A DNA stretch of 64,000 nucleotides from PVC group bacterium (GCA_024231215.1 JAAEQR010000142.1:36593-100592), one strand, 5' to 3'; positions 4,403 to 50,881 are shown, counted from the first letter of the stretch. The notes: a model not told the origin generated them from the letters alone. A program made the numbers and translations.

Positions 4403-4675
4403 ATGAGTATAACCCAAGTTCATATATATTATTCCGGCAGAGTGCACGGTGTGGGGTTTCGTTATACGGCTGAACGTATTGCGGCTAGTTGGGGTGTTGC
4501 CGGCTGGGTGCGTAATCTGCCGGACGGACGGGTTGAATTGGTTGCAGAAGCAGAGAAAAACAAGCTAAAAGGCTTCACAGAAGATTTAGAAGCTACAATG
4601 CATGCTTATATAAGAAATACCGATGTATTCTGGGAAGATGCAGAACAAGTAAAAGGTTTTACGATAAGATTCTAG
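4403..4675 (+). CDS. acyP: Acylphosphatase
   Basis: VHIYYSGRVHGVGFRYTAERIAASWGVAGWVRNLPDGRVELVAEAE contains the acylphosphatase signatures. Confidence 0.85.
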   Translation: MSITQVHIYYSGRVHGVGFRYTAERIAASWGVAGWVRNLPDGRVELVAEAEKNKLKGFTEDLEATMHAYIRNTDVFWEDAEQVKGFTIRF

Positions 4676-6979: not shown

Positions 6980-8478
6980 AATTCAAGATCATATGTTTAG
7001 TGCTTATATTCATGACTCTTACTGTCTCAGGATTACAGGCAGAAGATGCTACATCTTTACACATCAACTTAGATGTTAAAAATATGAGCATTATCGATGT
7101 ATTAAGATTATTAGCGGAACAGGGACAGGTGAACATTGTTGCCAGTAAAAATGTTCAGGGTCGAATCACGGCTAAATTACAAGGTATAACCGTAGAAGAA
7201 GCTTTAGGGGCAATTTTAGATGCAAATAACTTTATTTACAAAAAAGAAAATAATATCATAAAAGTGTATGCCCGGCAGGATATTTTGCAGCAGGAACAAA
7301 CCGAGAAATTAGTAAGCAGGGTATTTTTGCTTGTTCATATCAAGGCCACTGATTTTAGGCAAGTATTAAATTCCATAAAATCTGCAAGAGGACGAGTAGA
7401 AATTAATACAGTTTCTAATCAAGTAATTGTAACTGATACCTTGGAAAAGATGGCAGAAATAGAACAAATAATAGCCGATTCTGATATGAAAATGGTTACA
7501 AAAATTTATAATTTAAATTATGCTGATGCAAATAGCCTAAAAGATAAGCTTATAGAAATGATTCCGAAACAAGCCGGGGATGTTTTTGTTGATGAACGTA
7601 CAAATGGTATTGTTATAAGAGCAGTTTCAGAAACGATTGAGAAAGTTGATTTACTGATGCAAAGCTGGGATAAGCGTTCTTCCCAGGTATTGATTGAAGC
7701 AAAAATATTAGAAGTATCTTTAGATAAAACAAAAGGACTGGGAGTTAGCTGGGAATATCAATCAAGTTCCAATAACGATGCTACCAGTCTTTCTGCTAGT
7801 TTGCCGGCAAGCATAAGCGGCGGGGGCATTTTTAAGGTAGGAACATTAACACAAGATGAATATACAGTAACCATACAAGCGCTGGAAAGTTCTACTAATA
7901 CAAATATCCTATCCAACCCCAGGATTGTAGTGGTTGACAATACCGAAGCAAATATTTTAGTTGGAAGTGCGGAACCATACTTAGTTACTTATATTGACAA
8001 AGAAACTAATACCCAAACAGAAGAAACTAAATTTATTGATGTCGGAGTAAAGTTAAATGTTACTCCTAAAATCAGCAAAGACGATTATATTACCTTAAAG
8101 ATTCATCCAGAAGTAAGTTCTGCCAGAAGAGTAGCTGAAGTCAATAACGCTCTGGCGGTAGATACAACCCAAGCTGATACAACTGTGGTTGTGAAAAACG
8201 GACAAACCATTGTAATGGGGGGATTAATAAAAGACACCTCGTCAAAAGTCCAAGCCAAAGTTCCAGTTTTAGGTAGTATCCCGATTATCGGTTTGTTTTT
8301 CAGGAGTCACGCTACTGCAAAAATCAAGAAGGAAATAGTAGTTTTTATTACTCCTCATATTTTAGAAAACAGCGAAACTAGGATAACAGTTGGTGATAGA
8401 GAGCAGGCAATGAAACAAGCTATCCAGGAGGCTGCTAATAAATGGGATGAATGGGAAGGAGAAAAAGATTATGAATAA
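6976..8478 (+). CDS. pilQ: Secretin family outer-membrane channel (type IV pilus PilQ / T2SS GspD-like)
   Basis: Signal peptide plus an N0-like domain. C-terminal secretin core NPRIVVVDNTEANILVGSAEPYLVTY...VKNGQTIVMGGLI...VPVLGSIPIIGLFFRS. Confidence 0.85.
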   Translation: MKFKIICLVLIFMTLTVSGLQAEDATSLHINLDVKNMSIIDVLRLLAEQGQVNIVASKNVQGRITAKLQGITVEEALGAILDANNFIYKKENNIIKVYARQDILQQEQTEKLVSRVFLLVHIKATDFRQVLNSIKSARGRVEINTVSNQVIVTDTLEKMAEIEQIIADSDMKMVTKIYNLNYADANSLKDKLIEMIPKQAGDVFVDERTNGIVIRAVSETIEKVDLLMQSWDKRSSQVLIEAKILEVSLDKTKGLGVSWEYQSSSNNDATSLSASLPASISGGGIFKVGTLTQDEYTVTIQALESSTNTNILSNPRIVVVDNTEANILVGSAEPYLVTYIDKETNTQTEETKFIDVGVKLNVTPKISKDDYITLKIHPEVSSARRVAEVNNALAVDTTQADTTVVVKNGQTIVMGGLIKDTSSKVQAKVPVLGSIPIIGLFFRSHATAKIKKEIVVFITPHILENSETRITVGDREQAMKQAIQEAANKWDEWEGEKDYE

Positions 8479-9037
8479 TATAACACAAAGAGTGTGCGGA
8501 TTTTTTCTATTTATACTGGGCTGTGCTTTAATTATCCCGGGGATAGATTGTTATGGTATTATGCCGGCCCGAAGTCTGGAAGATATTACTCTTGCAGCAG
8601 ACAATATTGTTGTTGGCCAGGTTTTAGCTACTAACACTCTCTGGAATCAGGATAAGACTTTAATTGTTACCGAAGTAAAAGTATCTATTAGTGATGTAAT
8701 TAAAGGAGATTTTACGCAAGAAGTTTTAACCGTAGAATTTATCGGAGGGGAAATTGGAACAATAGGATTAAAAGTTTCAGATACTCCGGAGTTTCAGGCA
8801 AACGAAGAAATTGTGCTTTTTTCCAATAATATTAAAGATCGTCCTTTGGTGCAGAAAATCACGGGTAGGACTCAGGGTAAATGTAAAGTACAGGAAAATT
8901 TGGTTTCAAATATAAAAGAAGTTACAATAGCAGGCGGAAAAAAAGTTGACGATAACGGTCAAGTGTTTACGGAAGCATCAAAAACTATTCCATTAGATGT
9001 GTTTATTAGCGAAATAAAAGAGGTGCTTGTTAAGTAG
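8471..9037 (+). CDS. Hypothetical exported protein
   Basis: Hydrophobic N-terminus ITQRVCGFFLFILGCALIIPG. No recognizable domain. The start is ambiguous between 8447 and 8471. Confidence 0.45.
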   Translation: MNNITQRVCGFFLFILGCALIIPGIDCYGIMPARSLEDITLAADNIVVGQVLATNTLWNQDKTLIVTEVKVSISDVIKGDFTQEVLTVEFIGGEIGTIGLKVSDTPEFQANEEIVLFSNNIKDRPLVQKITGRTQGKCKVQENLVSNIKEVTIAGGKKVDDNGQVFTEASKTIPLDVFISEIKEVLVK

Positions 9038-9065
9038 CTCCGAGGAATAAGAGAGGAGGCATATA

Positions 9066-10316
9066 GTGAACTGCAAACGAAATGATTTATTCATATTGAC
9101 TTATTGCTTAATAATATTATTGGCTTTCCAAGCAAACGTGTTGGGGTACGGACTTACTGGTGCAAAATGGGCGGAGAGTGATTTCCCGGTCTCTTATTAT
9201 ATAAATCAAAGCGGTTCTGCCGATATTAGTGATGATAGTGAACTTACTGCAATCCGAACTTCTTTTCAAACCTGGACGAATGTTGCTGGAACAGATGCCA
9301 CGGTATCCGATCAGGGATTAACCGCAATTGAAGGAGGTGCTGGATATTCTAGTACTTACGATAGCTATAATGTTCTTTCCTGGGCAGAAGCTACAGGCAC
9401 AGCTTATACCATTGTTGAAGGTGCTCTTGCGGTTTGTATAACCTGGTACAATGTCGGAGGGACAGGATATATCTATGATTCAGATATAATTTTTAATGGG
9501 GTTGATTATACATGGACAACCACCGCTGTAGGCGGCGCAATGGACGTGCAAAATATCGCTACACATGAAATAGGACATTTTTTTGGACTAGGCGACTTGT
9601 ATGATGCAGCTGATTCTGAGAAAACTATGTATGGATACGGCTCAGCTAATGAAACTAAAAAAAGAAATTTACATGAAGATGATGTTAATGGAATAGCTTA
9701 TTTATATCCTTATGCCGGAATCCTTAATTTTAGTGCTAATAGTATTGGCTTGGCCGATAGCAGCTGGAATGTCTTAAGTTGGACAAATCCCCAAAAATCC
9801 ACATTTACAAAAACAATGATACGTTATCGCACCGATGGAGTTTACCCCACAAGTATCATCGAAGGAACACTGCTGGTAGAAAGAGCCGGAACAGTAAGCG
9901 CAACAGAAACTTATAATCATACAAATGTCAAAGCCAACACGACATACTATTACACAGCTTTTGCTTATGATTCAGTAAACGGATATAGGGAGACAGGTAT
10001 AACAAGTAAAGAAAGCGCTACTGTTTTTGGTGGCGGTGGAACAAGCGGAACAAGTAATAGCGAACGAAGCGATTGTTTTATAGCGACAGCTTGTTATGGT
10101 GATTATCATGCGCGGGAAGTATTAATATTACGCAAATTCAGGGATACTTGTTTATCCAAGGTCCAATCAGGAAGACAGTTTATTCAATCTTATTACCTGG
10201 TAGGCCCACACTTGGCCACAATAATTAATAATAACCCTAGCTTAAAAGAATTTGTACGAGCATATTTACAGCCAATTGTTAATATGGCTGAGTATTTTAC
10301 CACAGGAGGGCGCTAA
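9066..10316 (+). CDS. Secreted zinc metalloprotease, metzincin-type (HExxHxxGxxD), with an FN3-like domain and a conserved Cys-containing C-terminal module
   Basis: GTG start with RBS GAGGAGG. Signal peptide present. Catalytic HEIGHFFGLGD and a Met-turn-like TMYGYG. FN3-like middle region. C-terminus SDCFIATACYGDYHAREVLILRKFRD. Confidence 0.8.
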   Translation: MNCKRNDLFILTYCLIILLAFQANVLGYGLTGAKWAESDFPVSYYINQSGSADISDDSELTAIRTSFQTWTNVAGTDATVSDQGLTAIEGGAGYSSTYDSYNVLSWAEATGTAYTIVEGALAVCITWYNVGGTGYIYDSDIIFNGVDYTWTTTAVGGAMDVQNIATHEIGHFFGLGDLYDAADSEKTMYGYGSANETKKRNLHEDDVNGIAYLYPYAGILNFSANSIGLADSSWNVLSWTNPQKSTFTKTMIRYRTDGVYPTSIIEGTLLVERAGTVSATETYNHTNVKANTTYYYTAFAYDSVNGYRETGITSKESATVFGGGGTSGTSNSERSDCFIATACYGDYHAREVLILRKFRDTCLSKVQSGRQFIQSYYLVGPHLATIINNNPSLKEFVRAYLQPIVNMAEYFTTGGR

Positions 10317-10318
10317 TA

Positions 10319-11287
10319 ATGTTGAACAAATTTGGGCTATATATTTTTCTAATAACACTTGTTATACTGTTATCTATCTCCAGCTGTTTTGCGGCTGAAG
10401 GAGGCACTAGGCCTATTTCTATGGGAGGAGCGTTTGTTGCTATGGCTGACGATGCGCATGCAGCAACCTGGAATCCTGCAGGCATGGCATGGCAGGAAGA
10501 CTTTGAACTGAGCTATTCCGCTATTCTTACCAATAGAGATAAGTATATCAGCGGTGATTTTATCACCGACGATTATTTTGTTATATGTTCTCCTTTGAAA
10601 TCAGGGTATAAGCAAAATTTTGAATCACGTGGGGCATTTGGCATTTATTATCAGACGAGTGGATATCAACAAAACAGTACTGATACAAGTATAACTCAAC
10701 CAGGTATTTCGTATGCCCGAACAATGTTTGAAGATAACTTTGCTATAGGTATTGGAGCTAGCTACTATGATTTTGAGGTTGGTATTCCCGGAGCTAGTGA
10801 TAATGATACAGCTTTAAGTTATAATCTCGGATTTCTATGGTATCTCAATGATAAGATAACTCTGGGCTGTTTATGGGAAAACCTTAATGAACCATCCTAT
10901 TCTATTTTGGGCCTGGATAATCGGCTAACAAGAATATGGCGTCCGGGTGTTGCTTATTATTTTGATGAAGATACTGTTGTATCATTGGATATTTATGATC
11001 TTACGGGTAATACTGAAGACAAGGGTAGTGATTTTAGCCAGGATATCCGCATTGGATTTGAACATTATATGAAAGAGGATTTTTCAATACGTTTTGGCGC
11101 ACACCATCCTAATTCTAGTGTTGATTCTAGTAAATACTATTCTTTTGGAATGGGTTGGCAGCGTTCAGACTTTCTCGGAATGTACGCAGTGAATTATTAT
11201 CTAGATTATGGGTTTATATACTGGACAGATGTTCCAGCAGGCATGGAAGATTATATCCATCAATTAGGAGTAACATTAAAATTCTAA
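10319..11287 (+). CDS. Outer-membrane beta-barrel protein with a FadL/TodX (PorV-like) N-terminal motif
   Basis: Signal peptide. GGAFVAMADDAHAATWNPAGMA resembles the FadL/OMPP1 family N-terminal motif. Alternating amphipathic strands. The terminal residue is an aromatic Phe (..VTLKF). Confidence 0.6.
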   Translation: MLNKFGLYIFLITLVILLSISSCFAAEGGTRPISMGGAFVAMADDAHAATWNPAGMAWQEDFELSYSAILTNRDKYISGDFITDDYFVICSPLKSGYKQNFESRGAFGIYYQTSGYQQNSTDTSITQPGISYARTMFEDNFAIGIGASYYDFEVGIPGASDNDTALSYNLGFLWYLNDKITLGCLWENLNEPSYSILGLDNRLTRIWRPGVAYYFDEDTVVSLDIYDLTGNTEDKGSDFSQDIRIGFEHYMKEDFSIRFGAHHPNSSVDSSKYYSFGMGWQRSDFLGMYAVNYYLDYGFIYWTDVPAGMEDYIHQLGVTLKF

Positions 11288-11289
11288 AA

Positions 11290-12084
11290 ATGAAGAAAAA
11301 AATTACTTCTATAATATGTTTTGTAGTCATAATCTTTAATGCAGCCTTTATTCTTTTTTGTGTAAATAAACTAGTTGGCATTCGACAGGATCGTGTGATT
11401 ATACGAAAAGAAATAGCAGAATTAGCACGAGAAGATCAACTGATACTTCCTTCTAGTAACCCAACTTTCCCTGAGGATATCTCCATAGATCAAAACAAAG
11501 TGCTTGTTAAGGCTACTGCTTCGTTAACCCCAGACATTCCATTAAAATTGCTTGGTATTATTCAAGGCTCAAAAAACAAAGCAGTTATTGAGCTAATTAA
11601 TGAGAAAACCAATGTCATTTATAGTGAAGGCGATAAAATAGGCAAAATTCTAATTCAGAAAATATTTAAAGATAAAGTATTATTAAATATTCATGGAAAC
11701 ATTTATACGCTTGCGTTTGAAAACAGCCTTCCAGTTGAAGGAGAATTAAAAGTCCGATATTTATCTGACAATGAATTGCTTTTAAATAAAAAAACTCTTA
11801 GCTCTCACGTCCTTGATTTTGCAGGTGAAGCTAATAAATTGAAAATATCAAAAGCTGTAAATAAACAGGGGAAGGGACTAAAAGTCAGTCATATTCCACA
11901 GGACGGTTTAATTAGAGAATTAGGTTTACGTAATGATGATGTAATTAGAACCATTAACGGGATGCAAGTTGATAGTGTTCCTAAAGTTCTGTTCATAATG
12001 AACAAGTTAAAATCAACCCGCCTTATAGAGCTGGGTATAATTAGAAATGACCTGCCTTTGATGATGAAATATCAACTAATATAA
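11290..12084 (+). CDS. PDZ-domain inner-membrane protein, GspC/PilP-like
   Basis: ATG at 11290 gives MKKKITSIICFVVIIFNAAFILF, a TM segment. C-terminal PDZ GLIRELGLRNDDVIRTINGMQVDSV. The track ORF start at 11155 overlaps the upstream gene and is probably a 5' over-extension. Confidence 0.6.
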   Translation: MKKKITSIICFVVIIFNAAFILFCVNKLVGIRQDRVIIRKEIAELAREDQLILPSSNPTFPEDISIDQNKVLVKATASLTPDIPLKLLGIIQGSKNKAVIELINEKTNVIYSEGDKIGKILIQKIFKDKVLLNIHGNIYTLAFENSLPVEGELKVRYLSDNELLLNKKTLSSHVLDFAGEANKLKISKAVNKQGKGLKVSHIPQDGLIRELGLRNDDVIRTINGMQVDSVPKVLFIMNKLKSTRLIELGIIRNDLPLMMKYQLI

Positions 12085-12201
12085 CCAGCCTCCAGCTTGA
12101 CATCTTTCTAAATATATGTTATAATTAATCCGAAGGTAAGTGTTTTTTTGCCATATAATTAAATACTTTTATAATTGACATAATAATGGGCGAGGGACAC
12201 C

Positions 12202-12390
12202 ATGAATAACAATAATCTTTTTATTCAGAGACGGTTTCAGGTGCAGAAAGATTCTGGTAGCGTTCATTTTATGGGATCTATCTATATTGCTTATTATTTC
12301 TATCTCAACAGTGAATTATATGTCTCTAAATATGCCTTATGCATAAAGTTTACGAAAAAGGAATCAGAACTTAAACAATTAATGAGCTAA
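12202..12390 (+). CDS. Small hypothetical ORF (62 aa), possibly non-coding
   Basis: ORF only, in a 550-bp intergenic gap. Followed by an intrinsic terminator at 12422-12448. Confidence 0.2.
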   Translation: MNNNNLFIQRRFQVQKDSGSVHFMGSIYIAYYFYLNSELYVSKYALCIKFTKKESELKQLMS

Positions 12391-12421
12391 CTTTATATAT
12401 TGCAATAGTTTTAATTTTTAA

Positions 12422-12448
12422 AGCTTCTCAAAAAGAGGAGCTTTTTTT
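12422..12448 (+). terminator. Rho-independent terminator
   Basis: AGCTTCTC-AAAAA-GAGGAGCT forms an 8-bp stem with one G-U pair, followed by T7. It abuts the -35 of the next promoter. Confidence 0.55.
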
Positions 12449-12449
12449 A

Positions 12450-12478
12450 TTGACATTTTTGCCCAATCCTAGTAAAAT
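12450..12478 (+). promoter_or_regulatory. Consensus sigma70-type promoter (TTGACA-17 nt-TAAAAT)
   Basis: -35 TTGACA at 12450-12455, a 17-nt spacer, and -10 TAAAAT at 12473-12478. The predicted TSS is about 12485. Confidence 0.6.
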
Positions 12479-12486
12479 TATACTCT

Positions 12487-12608
12487 AGCGTTGTTGCAAA
12501 ACGCATATCTACTGCGTTACGTGCTCGCTCGCTTGTGCGATGTACAAACGAGTACGTCTCCGCGCGTGTTCGCACAAGCCTTGCATAGATACATTTTGCA
12601 ACAACGCT
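12487..12608 (+). ncRNA. Candidate structured RNA, unclassified. Either an sRNA or a 5' leader element of the M16 peptidase gene. The rod-like nested-helix architecture resembles 6S RNA but is shorter.
   Basis: A 15-bp perfect closing helix pairs AGCGTTGTTGCAAAA (12487-12501) with TTTTGCAACAACGCT (12594-12608). A 10-bp inner helix pairs GCTTGTGCGA (12531-12540) with TCGCACAAGC (12570-12579). The internal loop is asymmetric, 29 nt versus 14 nt. Local GC is about 50% against about 30% in the flanks. It sits directly downstream of the consensus promoter. Confidence 0.45.
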
Positions 12609-12635
12609 AATTTATAGCTAGGAGTGTTTAAAAGT

Positions 12636-13922
12636 ATGTATAAAAGTTCTGTTTTACCGAGTGGTTTGCAAGTTATCAGCCTGACTGATAAGAGAGTAAG
12701 TTCTGTTTCGATTGGAATTTGGATAGGAGCTGGTAGTCGTTATGAATCTGCGAAAGAAAATGGGGTTTCTCATTTTCTGGAGCACCTTGTCTTTAAGGGA
12801 ACTAAAAAAAGAACCTATCGTCAGATAAAAGAGTCCATTGAAGGAGTCGGAGGAATTCTTAATGGATTCACGGCCGAAGAACTCACTTGCTATTTAGTGA
12901 AAGTTATTGCTGGACATATGGATACAGCAATAGATGTTTTAATGGATATTGTGGTTAATCCAAGGATAACCCTCAGAGACATAGAAAAAGAGCGGCATGT
13001 GGTCTTTGAGGAAATAAAAATGTACTATGATCTGCCTAGACACCTGGCTTACGATAAACTAGTGCAATTACTTTGGCCTGCGCATCCTTTAGGCCGAAAT
13101 ATCGCCGGAACCTTTGATACGTTAAAAAAAATGTCCAGAAAAGATATTCTCAGCTATAAAAAATCACATTATAGTTTGAAGAATATAGTTATTTCCGCTT
13201 GCGGAAATATTACTCACGAAGCTATTTTACAAAAGGTAAAAAAGTTTCTTCGTAATAATCCGATAGATGTTACGGCGAGAATAGATAAACCCGTGTATAA
13301 GCCTGTAAATTTCGCGCAAAAAGAAATGCAAACTTGTTTTTTGACTAAAGATATTGAACAAACCCATTGCTATTTAGGGGTACATGCTTTGCATCGAAAC
13401 GACCCCTTACGACACGCATTGACAATTCTTCACATTATTTTGGGAGCTAATATGTCAAGCCGCCTCTTCAATGAAATCCGGGAAAAGAAAGGACTGGCTT
13501 ATGATATTGGCACTGGCATAAAGCGTTTTAGTGATACCGGAGCTTTTGTAGTTCATGCTGGTGTTAAAAAAGAAAAAACAGAAGATACTCTGAGGGTTAT
13601 CCTTAAAGAACTAAAAAAAACTTGTCAGTACAAAGTAACTAGCGAAGAATTTACTAGAGCACGTGCGTATTATACAGGACAGATTCTTATGGGAATAGAA
13701 GATACCCTTGAGCATATGCTTTTCATGGGAGAATCGTTAATGATTGATGGTGCAATTAAAAACATAAAGCAGATCATTAGAGAAATTGAGAAAGTAAGAC
13801 CTGAGGATATACAAAAAGTTGCTAGATTAATATTTATAAAAAATAATATGAACTTGGCTGTTGTCGGTCCTTTGAAAAAAAGGCAGGCTAAAACAATCAA
13901 AACAATTCTGGATGGGTTTTAA
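12636..13922 (+). CDS. M16 family zinc peptidase (pitrilysin/insulinase-like)
   Basis: Inverted zinc motif HFLEHLVFKGT (HxxEH). ATG at 12636 with SD TAGGAGTG. The track start at 12624 is a GTG. Confidence 0.85.
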   Translation: MYKSSVLPSGLQVISLTDKRVSSVSIGIWIGAGSRYESAKENGVSHFLEHLVFKGTKKRTYRQIKESIEGVGGILNGFTAEELTCYLVKVIAGHMDTAIDVLMDIVVNPRITLRDIEKERHVVFEEIKMYYDLPRHLAYDKLVQLLWPAHPLGRNIAGTFDTLKKMSRKDILSYKKSHYSLKNIVISACGNITHEAILQKVKKFLRNNPIDVTARIDKPVYKPVNFAQKEMQTCFLTKDIEQTHCYLGVHALHRNDPLRHALTILHIILGANMSSRLFNEIREKKGLAYDIGTGIKRFSDTGAFVVHAGVKKEKTEDTLRVILKELKKTCQYKVTSEEFTRARAYYTGQILMGIEDTLEHMLFMGESLMIDGAIKNIKQIIREIEKVRPEDIQKVARLIFIKNNMNLAVVGPLKKRQAKTIKTILDGF

Positions 13923-21905: not shown

Positions 21906-21983
21906 CGGGGCGTGGCGCAGTTTGGCTAGCGCGCTTGAATGGGGTTCAAGAGGTCGGTGGTTCAAGTCCACTCGCCCCGACCA
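21906..21983 (+). tRNA. tRNA-Pro (anticodon GGG), CCA encoded
   Basis: Cloverleaf: acceptor stem CGGGGCG pairs with CGCCCCG. D-stem GCGC/GCGC. Anticodon stem CTTGA/TCAAG with loop ATGGGGT, giving anticodon GGG and G37. T-arm GGTGG-TTCAAGT-CCACT. Discriminator A followed by CCA. Confidence 0.85.
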
Positions 21984-26175: not shown

Positions 26176-26235
26176 TATTATAGGATTTAAAAAACATTTT
26201 AATTTGTTGCGGATAAATTAGTATTATTTGTATCC

Positions 26236-26325
26236 GAAAAGGCAAACCCTGAGAAATCAGGGGGCGCAAAGCTACGGGTCTGTTAGCAGATGCTATGATC
26301 GCCGGGCGCACCGATAACGTTCTAG
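26236..26325 (+). promoter_or_regulatory. Candidate cyclic-di-GMP-I (GEMM) riboswitch aptamer
   Basis: GGCAAACC, then hairpin CCCUGA-GAAA-UCAGGG with a GNRA loop, then GGGGCGCAAAGCUACGGGUCU. This closely parallels the conserved P2 region of the V. cholerae Vc2 aptamer (GGCAAACC..GAAA..GGGACGCAAAGCCUCCGGCCU). It is GC-rich relative to the flanks. Confidence 0.55.
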
Positions 26326-26337
26326 CAAGCTTATGAT

Positions 26338-26377
26338 AGCCGAGCTGCCGAAGTATACGCAGTTGCGGCTTTTTTTA
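26338..26377 (+). terminator. Intrinsic terminator, likely the riboswitch expression platform
   Basis: AGCCGAGCTGC-CGAAGTATAC-GCAGTTGCGGCT forms an 11-bp stem with one bulge, followed by T7. Confidence 0.5.
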
Positions 26378-26420: not shown

Positions 26421-26546
26421 ATGAAAAAAATTCAAAAAAGGGATACACACATTATATTATTTATATTTTCTATATTATTATCTGAAACATCTATATTTTC
26501 TTTAACATATTATCTATTTATATATCAAATCAGGAGGCTAATATGA
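26421..26546 (+). CDS. Candidate 41-aa hydrophobic leader/uORF peptide, translationally coupled to the giant gene
   Basis: The ATG at 26421 gives MKKIQKRDTHIILFIFSILLSETSIFSLTYYLFIYQIRRLI. Its stop TGA overlaps the ATG of the downstream gene (ATGA at 26543-26546). The SD-like GGGAGGTGA is far from the start, about 11-14 nt. Not in the ORF track because it is under 60 aa. Confidence 0.25.
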   Translation: MKKIQKRDTHIILFIFSILLSETSIFSLTYYLFIYQIRRLI

Positions 26547-29500
26547 AAATCTTACGTTATTATACCCTTGCAGTTGTTTTTTGTTTCTTAGCAAATGTGA
26601 TCCTGTCAGTACCCGGTGCTAATGCCCAAACCCATGATGAGCTTTTAGATAGCGGGCTTAGCCAGGAAGTGTTACAAGGCTTATTCAATTCTAATGAGCC
26701 GATCAGTAATCAAAGTGACGCTGCCAATCTTTCCCAGAGTGAAATTGCACCGCCCCCTTTAGTTATCACTACATCCGGTGGTGACATTTATCTACTTCAA
26801 GGTGATGGTGTTAAAGCCAAGATGAAGATAGATCAGCAAGGCACTTTAGAAACAACCTATTCTCTTGACGGTGCTGACTACAAAATGATCAATGAGTTTG
26901 GTGAAGAATTTCATTATGAATACTCCCCGGACGGACAAACAGTACAAATTCTAAATGCCAATAACGAAGTTGTTGGAGAACACTCATTTGAATTGGGCAA
27001 AGCAACCGCATTTTCCGCCCAGGGCAAAATAACTTACCAATATTCTGATGATGGACTTAATCGCTTAGTGACCTCCACAGATGAATGGGGCAATGTTACT
27101 CATTATGACGACTTAAGCCGTCCCACAACAATTACAGACACAGATGGCAACGTTGTCGGAGAATACAAGTTTGATTCTAAGGGTCGGATGCAATCTTTTA
27201 CCGATCGTACCGGAAATGTCACAGTTTTTAATTCCGACGGAATCCGTCCTTTATATACTAAAAATGCACAAGGCACAAAAACTCAGGAATACCGTTATGA
27301 TAGCGACGGACATCTTGACGCGGTAATGAATATTACCAATGGACAAATAACCGAAGTAGAAAATGGATATTACACAGTAACTTATGATACAGTTGAAGTG
27401 CTCAATGATGACGGCACTGTAATGACTGATGAAAACGGTGAAGCAGTACTTGAATATGTTGCAGTCGGCGTATATTCTTATGATACGGCTGGAAATGTAG
27501 AATCTGTTAGCGATCTTGGAATGGGAGGAGTAATTACAGGCTTTACAGAGTATGATGATTACGGAAGAGTTTGTGCTTCCTATAATGCTGAAGGCACTAA
27601 GGTTCAAGAATACAAATATAATGAACATGGTTTCTTGGAAATGACTATATCACTGGGAGCAGTTGATCCATTGGCTGGAGAGCAAACTGTTTTAACTTAT
27701 ACAATATTTGACGGTAATGGTCGTCCAAGTGAAGTATGGCAGCTTGGTGATGGGGAAAACGACAAGATAAAAATCCAAGAATACGTGTATAAAGAAAATG
27801 GTCTTCTGGATATAACCGTTTCTTATGGTATAGAACGGGATGATCAAGGAAATGCAGTACTTAATGATGCCGGAAACTACATTTATTTTGAAACATCAAA
27901 AACTGTTTATGATAAAAAAGGCCGTCCTGAAGCTGTATATGGGATGGTTCGCAATGAAGCTAGCGAATTAGTTGTAGATAGCGATGGAAAACCGGTGCTG
28001 GAGATACAGCAAAAGTACGTCTATAATAAGGAAGGTTTTTTATCTAAAACGATATCTTACGGATTTAACGGTGCAAAAACAGGAGAAACAGTATTTGACG
28101 CATACAGCCGTCCGGTAGAATCTTATAATAGCACCGGGGCTTTAACCCAAACCTATACTTATCGTGAAGACGGTTTCTTAGCTCAAACTTCCAATTATGG
28201 AGACGCGGGAACATTAACCGGATATACACTATATGATGCAAAGGGCAAACCTACCGATGTATTTAATCATGAAGGCAGTCTTGTCCAAAAATATATATAT
28301 GATGAAAATGGTTCAATGATAATGAGCTTAAGCTTATCTTCCGAAGAAGGTGTGAATGACTTAATAGCTGCTACAATTCAGGATAAAACTGCCATTGCTG
28401 ATCTATGGAATAGCGATTGGGATTCAACTTATGACTTTCTTGATCCTGACAATAAGCTTACTTCAGAATATTTAACTTCTGTTGCATGGACAGCTTTAGC
28501 TGACGGTGATATTGAAAAAGCAAAAGCATTTACATTAAAATGCATCCAGACTTTTTCAGGAGAAGCTTTGTCTCAGCAAAAAAGTTTAGATGAACTACCA
28601 ACCGGGCCTGGAATTTCCCAAAATTGGGCCGTAAATGATGTTGGTACTTGTTATAATATTCTAGGTTTGGCTTTAGAGGAAGAAGGCGCTGTTGATGCCG
28701 CAGTAAGCGCATATAAAATACAAGCTTCTGATTTTGGCTATGCACAGGCCTATGACCCGGCAGAAGGCAGCTATTGGCTGGTAAGCGACGGGTCTAAAAA
28801 ACAGTTAGGAGAACTAAACGTAGAAACATCTGTTGTAACTGGATACACTATGTTTGGTGGAGACTCAAAACCAGTTGCTTCATATCAGTTTTATGAAAAA
28901 TTCGATGAGAATGGAGTAAGCCTTGGTGTGCAGGCAACAAAAGTGCAGGAATATGTATACTCCTATGAAGGTAAAACAAAAAATAAGGAAACCGGAGAAT
29001 ATTCAATGGTAACAAAATACTCTGGTTTTGTGCAAAAAACCAGCAACTATGGAGATTTCGATGCTGATACCGGAGAGCAGGTCGTAACCGGTTATACTGT
29101 GTTTGATAAGCTTGGACGTCAACAAAAAACATATAACGACGAAGATCAAGCTGTTCAATCCTACCAATATTCAAATGAAGGTTTTTTAAAAAGCACTGTT
29201 AGTTATGGCCAAAATGGCGTAAGAACAGGAACTACTATTTTTGATAGCTATTCACGTCCAGTTGCCAGCTTCAATATGATGGGTACAAGTACTGGCAAGA
29301 TGCCTAAATCATTTATCCAGGCTCTTAGTAATGGATTAACTAACGAAGAATTAAGTTCTCAAGAATGGCAGCCTTACTTAAAAGGCCTCAGTCAAACCTT
29401 TGAATACGGTAGTGATGGATTCTTAAGCAGCAGCAAATCTTATGGAGAAGCCATAGAAATCAAGGTTACTGATTTTGACGGATTTGCTTCATCTATGGGA

Positions 29501-32500
29501 TCCAGGAAAGGCGATGCTGAATATAAAGCTAAGTATGATTTCAACGAAGATGGAAGTATCAATACAGCAGATATGACTATCTTTAACGACGCCTTTTCCG
29601 GCATAATGGAATTCTCCGAGACTTATGGCTCTACATCAGACGGTCCTGGTCTTTACTTAGCGAAATATGATTATGACAGCGATGGAGATGTAGACAAAAC
29701 GGATCTAAGAGTATTCGCTAAGACATTTGAAAATACAGCAAAATACAGCCCTACCTGGACTGGAGTAACTCACTATGATAAATATGGGAAGGCTGACAAA
29801 GTAATCAATGTTATTACAGACGAGGATGGAAATCCGACTGAAGGTATTATGGTACAACAATATGAATATAATACCCGCGGTTTCATGGAAAAATCTGTTT
29901 CCTATGGAGTTGTAACAGACGATAATGGCACTATAATTATGGATGGAGATACTCCAATTGCCTTGGCCACTGGATACACATTGTTTGATGCTAAATCTCG
30001 GCCGGTATCTACATATAGTATTTATTCTTCTGCTACAACACAACCTCAAGAATCCAAAGTCCAGGATTATGTATATGAAGAAGGTTTTTTAGTTAAAACC
30101 GTCAACTATGGAGATATTGATGCAGAAACAGGTAATGCGGTAGAAACCGGATATACTGAATTTGATAGATATGGGCGTCAAACAGTATCGTATAATGAAT
30201 CCGATCAAAAAGTATCAACATTTAAATATTCTTCCCAGGGCTTTTTGAACGAAACATATAACTACGGAAAAAACGGAGCATTCCAGGGAAAAACAACATT
30301 TAATAAGAGTGGTCGCCCTGTAGAAGCCTACAACATGTATGCAAGTAGAAACGGCAAAGAAACCGGGTTGACTCAAAAATTTAACTACAATGAATATGGC
30401 CTTATGAGTCATAGTGAAACTTTTGGAGAAAACCAGACTCTAACCGGAACAACGTATTATAATGGTTATGGAAAAGGTTTACGGGTAGAAAACGAAAAAG
30501 GCTTTGTTATTTCCTCTTATCATTATAACGAACGCGGTTTTATGGAAAAAACACAAAGTCTTGCTTTTGTAGAAGTAACTGACCCGGAAGAGATCGCACA
30601 GCTTCAAGACAGCGGACTGTATGTAGAAATCACAACAACAGACGATAGTACTAATGAAACAGTAACAGCCGGCGGATTTTACGCAGTAACCGGTCATACA
30701 GAATTCGACGCATATTCACGTCCCACAGACTCCTACCAATGCTACTGGGATACTCAAGGGGAAGGTGAAAGAGTTAAAGTTCAGGAATACAAGTACGAAG
30801 ATGGCTTCTTAGTAGAAACTATAACTTTAGGCAGACCGGATGAAACAGGAGCTCAACAGCAAACAGGCCGTACTGAATTTGACAAGTATGGACGTCAGGT
30901 AGCATCATATAATGAATTTGATGAGCTTACAACAAAATACAAATACTCTACTCAAGGGTTTCTCTCAGGAACCAGCAACCATGGAGCACGTGGAGTTATT
31001 ACCGGTAAAACTGAAATCGGAGCTTTAGGAAAACCAACTGGAGCTTATAATCAAAAAGGAACCTTAGTTCAGTCTTTCAACTATGATAGTGTTACCGGTC
31101 AATTAACCGGAAGCACATCTTATGGAGAACCTGATGCCGAAACCGGAAATCCTACATTAACCGGTACTACTACATATGATGCCTATGGTAAAGCAACTGC
31201 AGCATATAATGATAAAGGAGCTCAAGTACAAAAATATGTATACGATAACCAGGGATTTATGTTAGAAACCGTTAGCCTGGGCGATGACATAGGACAAGGC
31301 CCGGTAGAAACAGGCCGAACAGTGTATGATCATGCCAGCCGGCCAATGGAATCTTATACTATCTCAGCTAGCGGAGTAGAAACTAAAGTTCAGGTATTTG
31401 TATACAATAGTGCAGTTAATTTATCTAATTATGAACAATATATTGCAAATCCAACTGATGCTCAGTTTGCAGAGACGGAAACCGGGTTCTTGACGACTAC
31501 ATTCAGTCATGGCAAAAATAACCACTTGGCTGGGTATACGAAGTTCAATAACTATGGACAACAAGAAGCATCATATAATGAGTTTGATGAGATGACTGTT
31601 GCATTCAAATATTCCAAGTCAGGCTTCATGACTGAATCCTGGAATTACACTATCAACAAAACTCGTACAGGTGTAACCTCATATAGTGCAACAGGAAGGC
31701 CAGACGCTTCATATAATGAAAAAGGCGCTGTAATCCAGGAATTCAATTACAATGACAATGGGTTTTTGGTATCTACAAACGGTTATGGAGATCTGGATGA
31801 AAACGGTGATCCTACATTAACACAAACCACACATTATGATGAATTTGGAAAACAAACACATAGCATGAATATAGATGGTGCTATTTCCCAAACTTTCCAT
31901 TATGATGATGCTGGTTTTCTTGAAAGATCAACCGGCTGGGCACAACGTGAAGATACTCCGGATACTCTTATCTGGTATGAAGTCTTAGATCAAGGATATG
32001 CCGTGGAAACTAGTTATACACTGTACAATGATGCATCCAGACCTTCTGAATCATACAGTGTATATGAAGGTGCCTCTGGAAAAACAGAAATGAAAACACA
32101 AGAGTTTATTTACAACACAGGCGTTGATGAAACCAATTATCAGGCATACATGGAAAATCCAGAAGCATTCAGCGAGACTGTAACCGGATTCATGACACAG
32201 TCTGTAACTTTCGCTCTAAATAACAGCAGTGTAGATGCGGAAGGAAATCTTGTATTTACCGATTCTTACTCACACGTAGATGAAGAAAGCGGTATTACTA
32301 CTGCCAATGAATTAGGCTCTGAAGTAATTGTCTCTGGGTTGACTTCGTACAATCGATATGGTCGTCCGGATACAACTTACAATCATGAGGGGCAAAAAGT
32401 TTCCGTAAGTAAGTACAATCAAAACGGTTTCCTGCAACAAACTGAAAATTACGGAGATAACGGTGCTATTACCGGTAAATTGCTATACAACGCAGCTGGC

Positions 32501-33427
32501 AGACCAACCGAAGCATTAAACCACAAAAACGTCAAAGTAACAGAATACTTCTATAACGATCAAGGTGGGTTAGACGTTACTTTAAACTACAACAATGGAA
32601 CTATAACCCAAAGAACAGAATATGACATATATTCTAAGGCAACAGCTTCTTACCAGCTTTTCTCAGGAAAAGAAGGTAACAAATTTGGAGAACAGCAGGG
32701 ATATCAATATGATGCCTCAGGAACCGCTAACTATGATGTAAATAATCCTACTGCACGTGGCAGCGGAACATTAACCCAGCAAAGTTACTATAATGAATTC
32801 GGGTTAATGAAGGCTTCTGTTACTTACGGAAGAAGTGGAAAAGAGACCAGTTATGTTGTATTCGATAAATATCAAAGACCAGTTGAAGTATATAACATAT
32901 CTCCTGATAATCAAAACGGTCGCGATACAATTTTGTCCAGCATCATTGTGCAAAGCGAAAACGTTTATACGGGAGAAGCTGCTGCTAACCTGGGATCAGC
33001 TAGAGTTCAAAGCTACAACTATAATGCAAATGGCTTTATGACCTCAACGATCTCTTATCAGAGATCAAAGGACTACGATGATCAGGGTAATCCGGTGGCT
33101 GACGGAACTTGGGAAAAAGAAACCTCAATCACTTACTATGCAAGTAACGGGCAACAAATAAACACATTCTTGCTAAAAGATGGGGTACAGGCTAATCTCG
33201 CAAAACCTGATCACACAGTCGGTGCAAAACAAGCTGAATACAAGTACAACACTAATGGGTTCTTAGACAGAGCCTATAATTATCAGGATAATTCTCAGAC
33301 AGGATACACCAAATATGATGATAGCGGAAGACAAACAACAAGCTACAATGATAAAGGCACTGCTGTCAATGCTTACTGGTATAATTCAAATGGGTTCTTG
33401 ATTGGTAGTACCTCGCTGGGACAGTAG
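26543..33427 (+). CDS. Giant secreted repeat protein (2,294 aa). Built from about 40 degenerate YD/RHS-like repeats with a central dockerin-like Ca-binding pair. Putative surface or extracellular protein.
   Basis: Signal peptide MKILRYYTLAVVFCFLANVILSVPGANAQ. Recurring unit of about 45 aa: TGYTxFDxYGRQxxSYNExDQxVxxYKYSxxGFLxxTxNYGxNG. Dockerin-like segments KYDFNEDGSINTADMTIFNDAF and KYDYDSDGDVDKTDLRVFAKTF. Cys-free and rich in G, Y, T and N. SD CAGGAGG precedes the ATG. Confidence 0.85.
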   Translation: MKILRYYTLAVVFCFLANVILSVPGANAQTHDELLDSGLSQEVLQGLFNSNEPISNQSDAANLSQSEIAPPPLVITTSGGDIYLLQGDGVKAKMKIDQQGTLETTYSLDGADYKMINEFGEEFHYEYSPDGQTVQILNANNEVVGEHSFELGKATAFSAQGKITYQYSDDGLNRLVTSTDEWGNVTHYDDLSRPTTITDTDGNVVGEYKFDSKGRMQSFTDRTGNVTVFNSDGIRPLYTKNAQGTKTQEYRYDSDGHLDAVMNITNGQITEVENGYYTVTYDTVEVLNDDGTVMTDENGEAVLEYVAVGVYSYDTAGNVESVSDLGMGGVITGFTEYDDYGRVCASYNAEGTKVQEYKYNEHGFLEMTISLGAVDPLAGEQTVLTYTIFDGNGRPSEVWQLGDGENDKIKIQEYVYKENGLLDITVSYGIERDDQGNAVLNDAGNYIYFETSKTVYDKKGRPEAVYGMVRNEASELVVDSDGKPVLEIQQKYVYNKEGFLSKTISYGFNGAKTGETVFDAYSRPVESYNSTGALTQTYTYREDGFLAQTSNYGDAGTLTGYTLYDAKGKPTDVFNHEGSLVQKYIYDENGSMIMSLSLSSEEGVNDLIAATIQDKTAIADLWNSDWDSTYDFLDPDNKLTSEYLTSVAWTALADGDIEKAKAFTLKCIQTFSGEALSQQKSLDELPTGPGISQNWAVNDVGTCYNILGLALEEEGAVDAAVSAYKIQASDFGYAQAYDPAEGSYWLVSDGSKKQLGELNVETSVVTGYTMFGGDSKPVASYQFYEKFDENGVSLGVQATKVQEYVYSYEGKTKNKETGEYSMVTKYSGFVQKTSNYGDFDADTGEQVVTGYTVFDKLGRQQKTYNDEDQAVQSYQYSNEGFLKSTVSYGQNGVRTGTTIFDSYSRPVASFNMMGTSTGKMPKSFIQALSNGLTNEELSSQEWQPYLKGLSQTFEYGSDGFLSSSKSYGEAIEIKVTDFDGFASSMGSRKGDAEYKAKYDFNEDGSINTADMTIFNDAFSGIMEFSETYGSTSDGPGLYLAKYDYDSDGDVDKTDLRVFAKTFENTAKYSPTWTGVTHYDKYGKADKVINVITDEDGNPTEGIMVQQYEYNTRGFMEKSVSYGVVTDDNGTIIMDGDTPIALATGYTLFDAKSRPVSTYSIYSSATTQPQESKVQDYVYEEGFLVKTVNYGDIDAETGNAVETGYTEFDRYGRQTVSYNESDQKVSTFKYSSQGFLNETYNYGKNGAFQGKTTFNKSGRPVEAYNMYASRNGKETGLTQKFNYNEYGLMSHSETFGENQTLTGTTYYNGYGKGLRVENEKGFVISSYHYNERGFMEKTQSLAFVEVTDPEEIAQLQDSGLYVEITTTDDSTNETVTAGGFYAVTGHTEFDAYSRPTDSYQCYWDTQGEGERVKVQEYKYEDGFLVETITLGRPDETGAQQQTGRTEFDKYGRQVASYNEFDELTTKYKYSTQGFLSGTSNHGARGVITGKTEIGALGKPTGAYNQKGTLVQSFNYDSVTGQLTGSTSYGEPDAETGNPTLTGTTTYDAYGKATAAYNDKGAQVQKYVYDNQGFMLETVSLGDDIGQGPVETGRTVYDHASRPMESYTISASGVETKVQVFVYNSAVNLSNYEQYIANPTDAQFAETETGFLTTTFSHGKNNHLAGYTKFNNYGQQEASYNEFDEMTVAFKYSKSGFMTESWNYTINKTRTGVTSYSATGRPDASYNEKGAVIQEFNYNDNGFLVSTNGYGDLDENGDPTLTQTTHYDEFGKQTHSMNIDGAISQTFHYDDAGFLERSTGWAQREDTPDTLIWYEVLDQGYAVETSYTLYNDASRPSESYSVYEGASGKTEMKTQEFIYNTGVDETNYQAYMENPEAFSETVTGFMTQSVTFALNNSSVDAEGNLVFTDSYSHVDEESGITTANELGSEVIVSGLTSYNRYGRPDTTYNHEGQKVSVSKYNQNGFLQQTENYGDNGAITGKLLYNAAGRPTEALNHKNVKVTEYFYNDQGGLDVTLNYNNGTITQRTEYDIYSKATASYQLFSGKEGNKFGEQQGYQYDASGTANYDVNNPTARGSGTLTQQSYYNEFGLMKASVTYGRSGKETSYVVFDKYQRPVEVYNISPDNQNGRDTILSSIIVQSENVYTGEAAANLGSARVQSYNYNANGFMTSTISYQRSKDYDDQGNPVADGTWEKETSITYYASNGQQINTFLLKDGVQANLAKPDHTVGAKQAEYKYNTNGFLDRAYNYQDNSQTGYTKYDDSGRQTTSYNDKGTAVNAYWYNSNGFLIGSTSLGQ

Positions 33428-33461
33428 GTATTACAATTAAAGATCCAGATGCAGCTGTTTT

Positions 33462-33498
33462 AGCAAAAGCCCCTTGGTAACCCCAAGGGGCTTTTGCT
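33462..33498 (+). terminator. Terminator hairpin after the giant gene
   Basis: AGCAAAAGCCCCTTGG-TAACC-CCAAGGGGCTTTTGCT is a perfect 16-bp stem. Confidence 0.6.
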
Positions 33499-33637
33499 AT
33501 ACAACATCCTAGCAGCAAGTTTTCCTTGAATTACTTGCTAACTTATTGTAAAATAATATCATTAATCACAGGATATATATTATTTAATAAGAAATCAACC
33601 CAAGCACGCTTAATGTGCATAAGTAAAGCACCTATAA

Positions 33638-47969: not shown

Positions 47970-49058
47970 CTATTTCTTCACTGTCTCAATCAGCCACATC
48001 CCAACGATAAAAAAGATTATATTCGTAAGCCAGGCAGCCAGAATAGGCGGTAAAATACCAACCTTGCCCAGAGAAAGACTTATCGCATGAACTGTCCAAT
48101 AGCTAAAACTCACCACGATACTTATCGTAACTCCTAATAAAGTACTGGCATTTCTCTTCTGGGTTAGGGTAAAGGGCACAACAAAAAAGATAACAATAAC
48201 ATTCGCCATCGGGAAAGCAATCTTACTATAAAATTCAACCAACTCTTTACGAGCTTTAAATCCGTTACGTTGTAACCGCCGAATATATTTTTTTAAACGC
48301 CAGTATCCCATAAAACTAGGCTGGACATTAGCTCTTTTTATATCTTTAGGTTCTTCATCAATCACAATCACTTTTTCCGTATAATGTGTCGGAGCAGTGG
48401 ATAAAGCCCCATCTGCATATTCACTAATTATACAGTCATAAAAAATCCAATAACCTTCTACCCACTGAACTCTTTTAGCTACTATCTGTTTTGCCAGCTG
48501 ATTTTGAGTATTATTTTCAGATATGATTACATTATTCATCTGCTGACGTTTTGTATCATACCTATTGATAATAAAGATCCGGTTGTGAGAACCATAAAGA
48601 GTAATATCCTTCATTATCGTATTGGCTTCTTTTTTCGCGGTCGGCTTAAAATACGTCTCTTTAAGATTTATCGAGTGCAAATAGGACTCCGGTTTAACAA
48701 CCTCATTTACCGTAAAATTAAAAATGCCCATCAAGATACCAAACCCGACAAAAATACCGATAACACTCCATAAGTTCATACCGATCGCTTTTATTGCCAT
48801 TATTTCATTATGTTTATTTAAAGTACTCAGCGTATAAATAGAAGCCAATATAATTATAATCGGACTAATCTGAACAAAAATAAAAGGAGTAAGTGAAAGA
48901 TAATAATCACAAAGCACAAATAAGGGCACTTTAGCCTTTACAATCTCATCTAACTGTTCGAAAAGATCAATAATCCAGGAAAGTGAAATGAAAAGAATAA
49001 GACACCAGAAATATGGCTTTAAAAATTCACCAAGTATATATTTTTTTATAATCTTCAT
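47970..49058 (-). CDS. LPS export permease, LptF/LptG (YjgP/YjgQ) family
   Basis: Six-TM permease with a periplasmic beta-jellyroll insert. Tandem with a paralog. Confidence 0.75.
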   Translation of the reverse strand: MKIIKKYILGEFLKPYFWCLILFISLSWIIDLFEQLDEIVKAKVPLFVLCDYYLSLTPFIFVQISPIIIILASIYTLSTLNKHNEIMAIKAIGMNLWSVIGIFVGFGILMGIFNFTVNEVVKPESYLHSINLKETYFKPTAKKEANTIMKDITLYGSHNRIFIINRYDTKRQQMNNVIISENNTQNQLAKQIVAKRVQWVEGYWIFYDCIISEYADGALSTAPTHYTEKVIVIDEEPKDIKRANVQPSFMGYWRLKKYIRRLQRNGFKARKELVEFYSKIAFPMANVIVIFFVVPFTLTQKRNASTLLGVTISIVVSFSYWTVHAISLSLGKVGILPPILAAWLTNIIFFIVGMWLIETVKK

Positions 49059-49060
49059 AA

Positions 49061-50155: not shown

Positions 50156-50158
50156 ATA

Positions 50159-50881
50159 TTATCTAGCCATAGTAACAACAGTAACCTTAGAAGCTCCTGC
50201 CTGTTTTAATGCTTCAGCACAAGCATTAGCGGTTGCTCCGGTTGTGAAAATATCGTCTATTAATAATACCGATTTCCCGGTAAATACCTGCGAATGTTTA
50301 CATCCGAATGCTTCCCGCATATTTTCAAAACGTTCAACTTTAGTCAATTCAAACTGAGACCGGGTATTTTTCACTCTTATTAGCGATTTAAAATCGAAGG
50401 GGGTTGTGGAAAACTCCGATGTTTTACGCGCAAAAAATTCCGCTTGATTAAAACCTCTTTCCAGACGCCTTTTTTTGTGCAACGGTACTGCGGTAATTAT
50501 ATCCATTTCCCTTATATTTAAATGAGCCTGAATAAACCGTGTCATTAAACTGCCAAGCTCTGTTGCTAATCTTACTTTGCGTTTATATTTGAGCATATGC
50601 AAACATTTTCTCAATGTACCTGTATAATTACAAACACTTAAGGCCCGATCAAAACTATATTGCTCCGGCCGACAAAAGTCACATCGACGATCATGAAACC
50701 CTTTAGACTTTCCGCAATAACGGCAAAAGGGAGCCAGGGTTAAGTTTATATTTGTAAAACATTCCCGGCACAAAGCCTCTTGAACTGAAAATATTCGTTT
50801 TTTACAAACAGGGCATACTGACGGAAATATAACATTTAATAAAGCAGCCAAATACCATTTTCCCGTGCTAAACAACTTCAT
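50159..50881 (-). CDS. comF: ComF family protein (phosphoribosyltransferase domain)
   Basis: N-terminal Zn-finger CPVCKK...CRECF. PRTase motif VLLIDDIFTTGATANA. Confidence 0.8.
   Translation of the reverse strand: MKLFSTGKWYLAALLNVIFPSVCPVCKKRIFSVQEALCRECFTNINLTLAPFCRYCGKSKGFHDRRCDFCRPEQYSFDRALSVCNYTGTLRKCLHMLKYKRKVRLATELGSLMTRFIQAHLNIREMDIITAVPLHKKRRLERGFNQAEFFARKTSEFSTTPFDFKSLIRVKNTRSQFELTKVERFENMREAFGCKHSQVFTGKSVLLIDDIFTTGATANACAEALKQAGASKVTVVTMAR

Follow-up and report, generated by a model that had tools for sequence, protein, structure and literature searches.

A GC-rich palindrome behind the promoter of an Omnitrophota M16 peptidase operon as a candidate MITE-like insertion

We analysed a stretch of 64,000 nucleotides from a PVC group bacterium (GCA_024231215.1, JAAEQR010000142.1:36593-100592; hereafter the window), in which a GC-rich nested palindrome lies between the promoter and the start codon of an M16 (insulinase/pitrilysin family) peptidase gene, the first gene of an M16-rpe-pgm-lepA operon (Table 1). 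Comparison with orthologous loci of the Omnitrophota indicates that the promoter is ancestral and that the hairpin, an insertion of about 122 nt, is specific to one lineage. With some reserve, we favour the view that the element is a solitary palindromic DNA insertion, similar to a miniature inverted-repeat transposable element (MITE), which entered one Omnitrophota lineage and would form the 5′-terminal hairpin of the operon mRNA. The initial annotation had described the region as a promoter-driven structured RNA element, either a 6S-like rod or a 5′ leader of the peptidase gene.

The comparison set consisted of seven orthologous Omnitrophota loci from six distinct relatives (L001-L004 and L069-L071, L004 being near-identical to L003). 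These relatives are distant, with M16 proteins that are 51-63% identical to that of the window. All seven loci share a small open reading frame (ORF), its terminator, a TTGACA-17-TA(A/C)AAT promoter and the M16-rpe-pgm-lepA operon. The hairpin, on the other hand, was absent from the interval between promoter and ribosome-binding site in each of them. From the -10 hexamer to the ATG, the leaders of the relatives measure about 48-57 nt, and they are AT-rich and weakly structured; in the window the same distance is 157 nt. The GC content between the small ORF and the ATG is 23-34% in the relatives and reaches 36-37% in L003 and L004, which carry an extra segment here. Since the hairpin is missing in relatives that keep the surrounding frame, it is best explained as a lineage-specific insertion.

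The position of the junction could be deduced from the reconstructed empty site. When nucleotides 12488-12609 are removed, the window reads TAAAAT-TATACTC-TA-ATTTATAG, which is colinear with TAAAAT-CTATAAGTTAAGTA of the relatives, whose leaders often open with this conserved CTATAAGTTAAGTA. The alignment of the empty site with these leaders places the junction at a TA inside a TTAA, so that the insertion would have gone into a TA some 8 nt beyond the -10 hexamer. Because the promoter and the terminator are present in the relatives and are colinear with them once the element is removed, both are real and ancestral. Together, the terminator of the small ORF and the M16 promoter are, as judged from these alignments, the conserved frame that holds the inserted element.

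Several details support this frame. The terminator is kept in L001, L002, L003, L069, L070 and L071. The promoter, which overlaps the T-run of the terminator, matches 11 of the 12 consensus positions, and its -35 and -10 columns are invariant in the alignment with the orthologous loci. The initial annotation had placed a terminator immediately before a TTGACA-17-TAAAAT promoter. Both were found to be present; the terminator stem had to be corrected to the coordinates in Table 1 and extended by the T-run, and the promoter turned out to be conserved in sequence and position in the seven orthologous loci. As the orthologues likewise begin with MYK, we took the ATG at 12636 and not the GTG at 12624 as the M16 start. 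MCP4649853.1, encoded on a contig of 497,756 bp in a metagenome-assembled genome (MAG) of a PVC group bacterium, matches the M16 protein at 100% identity. The remaining close matches all belong to Omnitrophota, the nearest being only 63% identical.

Bacterial MITEs are 100-200 bp long, have terminal inverted repeats (TIRs) and 5′-TA-3′ termini, duplicate their target and give transcripts that form an end-to-end stem-loop; in many of them, reading frames are open across the element (PMC2229807). At 124 bp the palindrome has no room for a transposase, it has perfect TIRs of 16 bp at both ends, and its reading frames +2 and -1 are open throughout. It folds from end to end on either strand (-53.3 kcal/mol for + and -58.0 kcal/mol for -), and the same interval lacks it in the six distant relatives. 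Its GC content of 0.51-0.54 is foreign to this intergenic setting: the window as a whole has 0.37, and the adjoining intergenic DNA has 0.24-0.29. A GC contrast had already been pointed out in the initial annotation and was reproduced here, with 0.51 for 12500-12599 against 0.24-0.29 upstream. The element begins 8 nt past the -10 hexamer; between its end and the AGGAG Shine-Dalgarno sequence lie 10 nt, and 26 nt separate it from the ATG at 12636. The earlier statement that the structure ends shortly before the M16 ATG is thus right, with a distance of 26 instead of 27 nt and an element of 124 instead of about 122 nt. When searching the literature, we found no paper that names both Omnitrophota and miniature inverted-repeat elements.

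The arms of the outer helix are complementary at 16 of 16 positions and are separated by 92 nt. This spacing had been reported before, together with a helix length of 15 bp that proved to be one base pair too short. All long helices of the element are Watson-Crick paired. A perfect 16-bp inverted repeat within 250 nt is expected about 0.009 times in the whole window, as calculated from its composition, and no other local inverted repeat in the 64 kb is as long as the element. To judge the fold, a 128-nt stretch with the element was compared with 200 dinucleotide shuffles. The minimum free energy (MFE) of the + strand RNA was -53.3 kcal/mol, the shuffles had a mean of -33.8 ± 3.35 kcal/mol (z = -5.82), and none of the 200 was as stable as the element. 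In this check, which had been set beforehand, the fold therefore lay far below its shuffled controls. The - strand of the same stretch had an MFE of -58.0 kcal/mol with an equal z of -5.82, and for the 124-nt element alone the values were -57.0 kcal/mol (-) and -52.3 kcal/mol (+). The palindromic symmetry is a property of the DNA and not of one RNA strand. Such symmetry, with a reverse strand that is no less stable when folded, is not what selection on the sense RNA would produce.

The predicted hairpin stacks about 27 base pairs coaxially below an apical domain: a stretch of 16 bp is followed by a 1x1 mismatch and a single pair, then by a 2-nt bulge with 6 bp and by a 1-nt bulge with a last 4 bp. 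Its interior differs in part from the one first proposed. The inner perfect 10-bp repeat is present as an inverted repeat, and the apical GTAC-AAACGA-GTAC hairpin was found as described. As a fold of the + strand RNA, however, the inner helix has a pair probability of only 1-2%: an alternative central fold (GAUGUAC/GUACGUC plus flanking pairs) is favoured over it by 4.4 kcal/mol. The asymmetric 29/14-nt internal loop of the earlier description is partly paired, TATCTA(C)TGCG being matched with UGCATAGATA. At 50 °C the hairpin still has a predicted MFE of -38 kcal/mol, and at 70 °C one of -19 kcal/mol. When the fold was extended to 196 nt to include the gene start, the hairpin did not change and the Shine-Dalgarno sequence stayed outside.

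Table 1. Positions of the palindromic element, its parts and the surrounding features in the window
Feature	Position	Strand	Remark
Small ORF, 62 aa	12202-12390	+	68-80% identical to 63-65-aa ORFs at the same place in seven Omnitrophota loci
Intrinsic terminator of the small ORF	12420-12451	+	10-bp stem 12420-12444, 5-nt loop, T-run
Sigma-70-type promoter of the M16 operon	12450-12478	+	TTGACA 12450-12455, 17-nt spacer, TAAAAT 12473-12478
GC-rich nested palindrome, 124 bp	12486-12609	.	TA at both termini; read as a MITE-like insertion
Left TIR TAGCGTTGTTGCAAAA	12486-12501	.	
Right TIR TTTTGCAACAACGCTA	12594-12609	.	perfect complement of the left arm
Middle helix, 5′ side, TATCTA(C)TGCG	12506-12516	+	pairs with 12582-12591; MFE structures
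Middle helix, 3′ side, TGCATAGATA	12582-12591	+	MFE structures
Inner perfect 10-bp inverted repeat	12531-12579	+	GCTTGTGCGA 12531-12540 and TCGCACAAGC 12570-12579; alternative central fold
Apical GTAC-AAACGA-GTAC hairpin	12542-12555	+	enclosed by the inner repeat
Shine-Dalgarno AGGAG of the M16 gene	12620-12624	+	outside the hairpin, not sequestered
M16 peptidase gene	12636-13922	+	first gene of the M16-rpe-pgm-lepA operon

Copies of the element and a possible parent element were searched for in the window and in plasmid, phage, viral, JGI metagenome and GTDB-representative collections; the source genome beyond the window (about 430 kb of remaining contig and the rest) lies outside this set. 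Presence in multiple copies is a defining property of MITEs, and the lack of a second copy in the collections searched weighs against our interpretation, as do the other results of this paragraph. Within the window the element was single-copy by a pattern search with three mismatches, by blastn with word size 7, by nhmmer --max and by a covariance model with filters off. These searches recovered only the element and its own reverse strand, the next best match being 33461-33499 with 15.9 bits; the window is densely packed with genes and leaves only about 8 gaps of more than 100 nt between them. Plasmids and phages gave no blastn match in 'distant' mode. A pattern of 12+12 arm nucleotides had 0 matches in the JGI metagenome contigs. 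An 18-mer of the terminus gave 56 single-arm matches there, which is close to the chance estimate, and no locus with both arms; the best 40 BLAST matches extend over only 18-21 nt. Viral contigs yielded two identical, unrelated matches and 0 with the inner-helix pattern. In the GTDB representative genomes, an 11+11 arm pattern retrieved six palindromes from unrelated taxa and with unrelated interiors. An inverted repeat with the 11-mer in one arm automatically fits the other half of the pattern too, so these six are an ascertainment effect, and only their arms account for the 24-35 bits that they score with the covariance model. Protein searches with the two open frames produced no word-sharing candidates and nothing credible. 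None of the 10 window ORFs of 329-385 aa that were scanned with Pfam is a transposase; their matches are of housekeeping type, with one DUF362. In addition, both ends of the element are TA and the empty site aligns with TTAA, but TA is itself palindromic and a target duplication is hence inseparable from TIR bases. The transcription start site, the transcript and the effect on stability, finally, are inferred.

Three of the palindromes retrieved by the arm pattern are hairpins of about 105-120 nt in genomes of Anaerolineae (L005, 3756-3866), Endozoicomonas (L009, 675-796) and Lentisphaerae (L010, 3917-4030). GTTGTTGCAAA happens to occur in their arms of 14-22 bp, and in the interior they show no relation to the window element. 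The lone protein match (E = 8.7e-4) was to a repetitive 552-aa protein, which we took for a eukaryote-type sulfotransferase-like protein; it covers 4 stretches at 34% identity and was judged to be due to chance.

Since the promoter is conserved and real, the mRNA of the M16 operon would carry the hairpin at its extreme 5′ end. The helix begins 8 nt past the -10 hexamer, which implies 0-4 unpaired 5′ nucleotides for the predicted start site, so that the operon mRNA would open with a near-perfect hairpin from about +1. As the translation signals stay free, the effect is likely to be post-transcriptional. By analogy with known systems, the element probably changes mRNA stability, either through protection of the 5′ end or through RNase III. 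In one option, the hairpin would shield the 5′ end from decay by RppH, RNase E or RNase J, as in ompA; 5′-terminal stem-loops stabilise mRNA against 5′-end-dependent decay (Emory et al. 1992, as related in PMC7509114). In the other, it would be a substrate of RNase III like transcribed Correia/NEMIS repeats. Transcribed Correia/NEMIS elements, among them one just downstream of the mtrCDE promoter, are cut by RNase III at their TIRs (PMC10969869, PMC2229807, PMC2649163). With either option, an altered level of the operon mRNA would be a by-product of the insertion and not an ancestral regulatory device.

The element resembles several small repeats of other bacteria. Correia/NEMIS elements of Neisseria are likewise about 100-155 bp long, with long perfect TIRs, TA termini and a TA target, and they form an end-to-end stem-loop. 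They often lie between a promoter and its gene and are co-transcribed, and their hairpin is an RNase III substrate (PMC2229807, PMC10969869, PMC2649163). Unlike the palindrome, Correia elements are present more than 100 times per genome, with a family consensus, an IHF site and outward promoters. The palindrome is known from one copy, has no sequence similarity to them and no internal promoter that we could detect, and its TIRs are 16 bp long compared to about 24-26 bp. RUP of Streptococcus pneumoniae and ERIC/IRU of enterobacteria are imperfect palindromes of 107-127 bp with TA termini that are transcribed with neighbouring genes and affect mRNA stability (PMC2229807). The mobilisation of RUP has been ascribed to an IS630-family transposase, which targets TA and would act in trans (PMC2229807). 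In contrast to the element, these are multi-copy families with a known or proposed parent insertion sequence, which was not found here; moreover, the GC content of the element is well above that of its host, which is not the case for RUP. The leaders of ompA in E. coli and of the ermC/aprE type in B. subtilis also have a hairpin at the 5′ end with few unpaired nucleotides and a free Shine-Dalgarno sequence downstream. Those hairpins are short (about 10-15 bp) and native to their leaders, whereas the element is 124 nt long and absent in orthologues, and its 5′ position is a prediction.

To assign the element to a known RNA family, Rfam 15 was scanned over the whole window at the gathering threshold and over 12300-12750 at E <= 10. 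The gathering-threshold matches in the window were only a tRNA (21906-21980) and a c-di-GMP-I-GGC riboswitch (26232-26353). No 6S, riboswitch, leader or thermometer family was found over the element in the permissive scan, which gave only weak chance matches: Phe_leader and tsr31 on the upstream terminator, and a partial RsaD-like stem. The idea of a 5′ leader holds in the literal sense that the element would be the 5′ end of the M16 operon mRNA; in the sense of a riboswitch, thermosensor or attenuator it does not. A riboswitch or attenuator was rejected for want of an expression platform, with the Shine-Dalgarno sequence free and no U-tract after the stem. An RNA thermometer was rejected because the hairpin would not melt in the physiological range. 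The initial annotation had also named conservation and covariation in relatives as a check. None of the relatives found has the element at the orthologous site; there is neither conservation nor covariation, and the interpretation as a conserved RNA fails. A cis-regulatory leader with covariation was likewise discarded: the orthologous leaders are short, AT-rich and unstructured and provide no homologue to align, and a covariance model built from the element found nothing in the orthologous loci. Among other candidates, judged from the sequence alone, an attC site lacks the R′/R″ core sites, a REP/RAYT element would have a GTAG-type head and another size, and a retron, bridge RNA or omega-RNA is not indicated by any adjacent reverse transcriptase, IS110 recombinase or TnpB.

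Further explanations were weighed against a MITE-like insertion. It is possible, if rather doubtful in our view, that the element is a selected, lineage-specific cis-acting element of the 5′ untranslated region (5′ UTR) that tunes M16-rpe-pgm-lepA as a stabiliser, a protein-binding site or a processing site, whatever its origin. The perfection of both long helices, the exact placement from about +1 to 10 nt before the Shine-Dalgarno sequence and the high GC content against an AT-rich genomic background, which is typical of structured RNAs, would all fit such a role. The operon also serves housekeeping functions, so that a harmful insertion would probably have been purged. A recent insertion accounts equally for perfect helices, however, and the antisense strand folds better than the sense strand, which argues against selection on the sense RNA. 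Moreover, there is no Rfam match, no conservation in any relative and hence no covariation to assess, and no expression platform, given the free Shine-Dalgarno sequence, the missing terminator or antiterminator and the -19 kcal/mol that remain at 70 °C. Selection on the leader is in any case compatible with a mobile origin. That the palindrome is the founding member of an undescribed, Omnitrophota-specific family of structured RNAs or MITEs, recruited as a 5′ module, seems improbable to us. If true, it could provide, for example, a stable trans RNA of about 124 nt or a portable cassette for mRNA stability, and more copies would be expected in the MAG or in unsampled relatives. Only slightly less improbable is a site that acts at the DNA level, such as an operator pair, a cruciform or a recombination site over the transcription start that controls the promoter. 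The palindrome is indeed symmetric as DNA and spans +1 to +124, and Correia elements can bear IHF sites that modulate a nearby promoter (PMC10969869). Beyond the symmetry, we found no positive support for a DNA site: the window has no similar site elsewhere, no regulator or recombinase gene is adjacent, the relatives use the same promoter without the element, and arms 92 bp apart with nested, non-concentric inner repeats are unlike known operators.

An independent small RNA processed from the operon transcript, be it a 6S-like decoy of RNA polymerase or another trans-acting RNA, is very unlikely. The 6S RNAs (RF00013) are mostly double-stranded rods with internal loops and have a sigma-70-type promoter, and in these respects the element with its strong promoter directly upstream and its rod-like fold is similar; its stability would also allow a processed fragment to accumulate. 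However, 6S RNAs are roughly 150-200 nt long and are conserved broadly across bacteria, while the element is about 60 nt shorter at 124 nt and occurs in one genome only. Neither RF00013 nor any other Rfam family matched it at E <= 10. The regions that had been taken for the 29/14-nt bubble of a 6S RNA are joined by base pairs in both the MFE and the centroid structure, leaving the supposed bubble largely paired. The element has no 3′ end of its own, as no terminator and no U-tract follow the stem before the Shine-Dalgarno sequence and the ATG 26 nt away, and it lies in a 5′ UTR behind what is, in relatives without the element, the conserved promoter of the M16 operon. The 6S-like rod of the initial annotation was therefore abandoned. 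Hardly credible, finally, is a chimeric or fold-back insertion made during sequencing or assembly. The source is a MAG and the element occurs in one assembly only, as would be expected of an artefact. The insert is new sequence and not an inverted copy of its flanks, though, it sits with clean TA junctions between intact conserved promoter and ribosome-binding signals, and chimeric reads do not yield nested imperfect palindromes. We thus retain the MITE-like insertion as the preferred explanation, in spite of the single copy.

The comparison of the loci also gave observations on the neighbourhood of the element. In L003 (2790-2925) and L004, about 110 nt of GC-richer sequence lie between the terminator of the small ORF and the M16 promoter. 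In L003, a degenerate TTGACG remnant is found right behind the terminator, and the full TTGACA-17-TAAAAT promoter follows further downstream. The same intergenic spacer thus took a different insertion in another lineage. Upstream of the small ORF, the window has a block at 8447-12084 with a 196-aa ORF without a Pfam match, an M10 matrixin-like peptidase, a FadL/TodX-like ORF and a T2SS-C-like ORF, the last two below the Pfam cut-off. This block precedes the small ORF in large part also in L001; L003 and L004 have a beta-lactamase-fold protein instead. Thus, the left flank of the unit of small ORF and M16 gene varies among Omnitrophota.

The small ORF was found directly upstream of M16 in every Omnitrophota locus fetched (L001 2673-2864, L002 2656-2853, L003 2544-2741, L069 1166-1363, L070 1156-1353 and L071 1147-1344). 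It encodes a protein of 62-65 aa with the motif MNNNNLFIQRRFQVQ...GSxYIAYYFY...ELYVSKYAL...TK, which at 68-80% identity is more conserved than the M16 peptidase (51-63%). In the window, the ORF is served by consensus promoters of its own (12097-12125 and 12148-12175) and has a leader of about 75 nt and a separate terminator. Searches of Pfam, NCBIfam and PDB sequences gave no significant match. Being conserved beside an M16 peptidase, the small protein may merit a separate study.

Elsewhere in the window, the c-di-GMP-I-GGC riboswitch is on the + strand and scored 67.9 bits, compared to a gathering score of 59. About 190 nt downstream of it begins an ORF of 2294 aa (26543-33427, +) with diverged internal repeats D1, D2 and D4 at 28-33 kb, which suggests a giant repeat protein under c-di-GMP control. 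At 33461-33499, 34 nt past the stop of this ORF, lies a perfect 17-bp GC-rich hairpin with the arms TAGCAAAAGCCCCTTGG and CCAAGGGGCTTTTGCTA and a 5-nt loop, which is most simply explained as a terminator or 3′ stabiliser. At 47970-50164 (-), tandem LptF/LptG permease paralogues share a 35-nt stretch, 89% identical, over each start codon and the sequence upstream (49033-49067 and 50130-50164). A GC peak at 4405-4593 was considered as an RNA gene and rejected; by its translation and by synteny with L003 it is the coding sequence of an acylphosphatase-like ORF.

If the reading as a MITE-like insertion is right, the locus records an ordinary event, the arrival of a small palindromic mobile element in a 5′ UTR, in the poorly studied phylum Omnitrophota. 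It also calls for caution: in AT-rich genomes, a conserved RNA gene or riboswitch should not be presumed from a GC-rich intergenic element with a highly significant fold behind a perfect promoter, and a comparison of orthologous loci settles such cases quickly. With an insertion in one genome and none in its relatives, the locus would be a natural test case in which the effect of a 5′ hairpin on a housekeeping operon could be measured.

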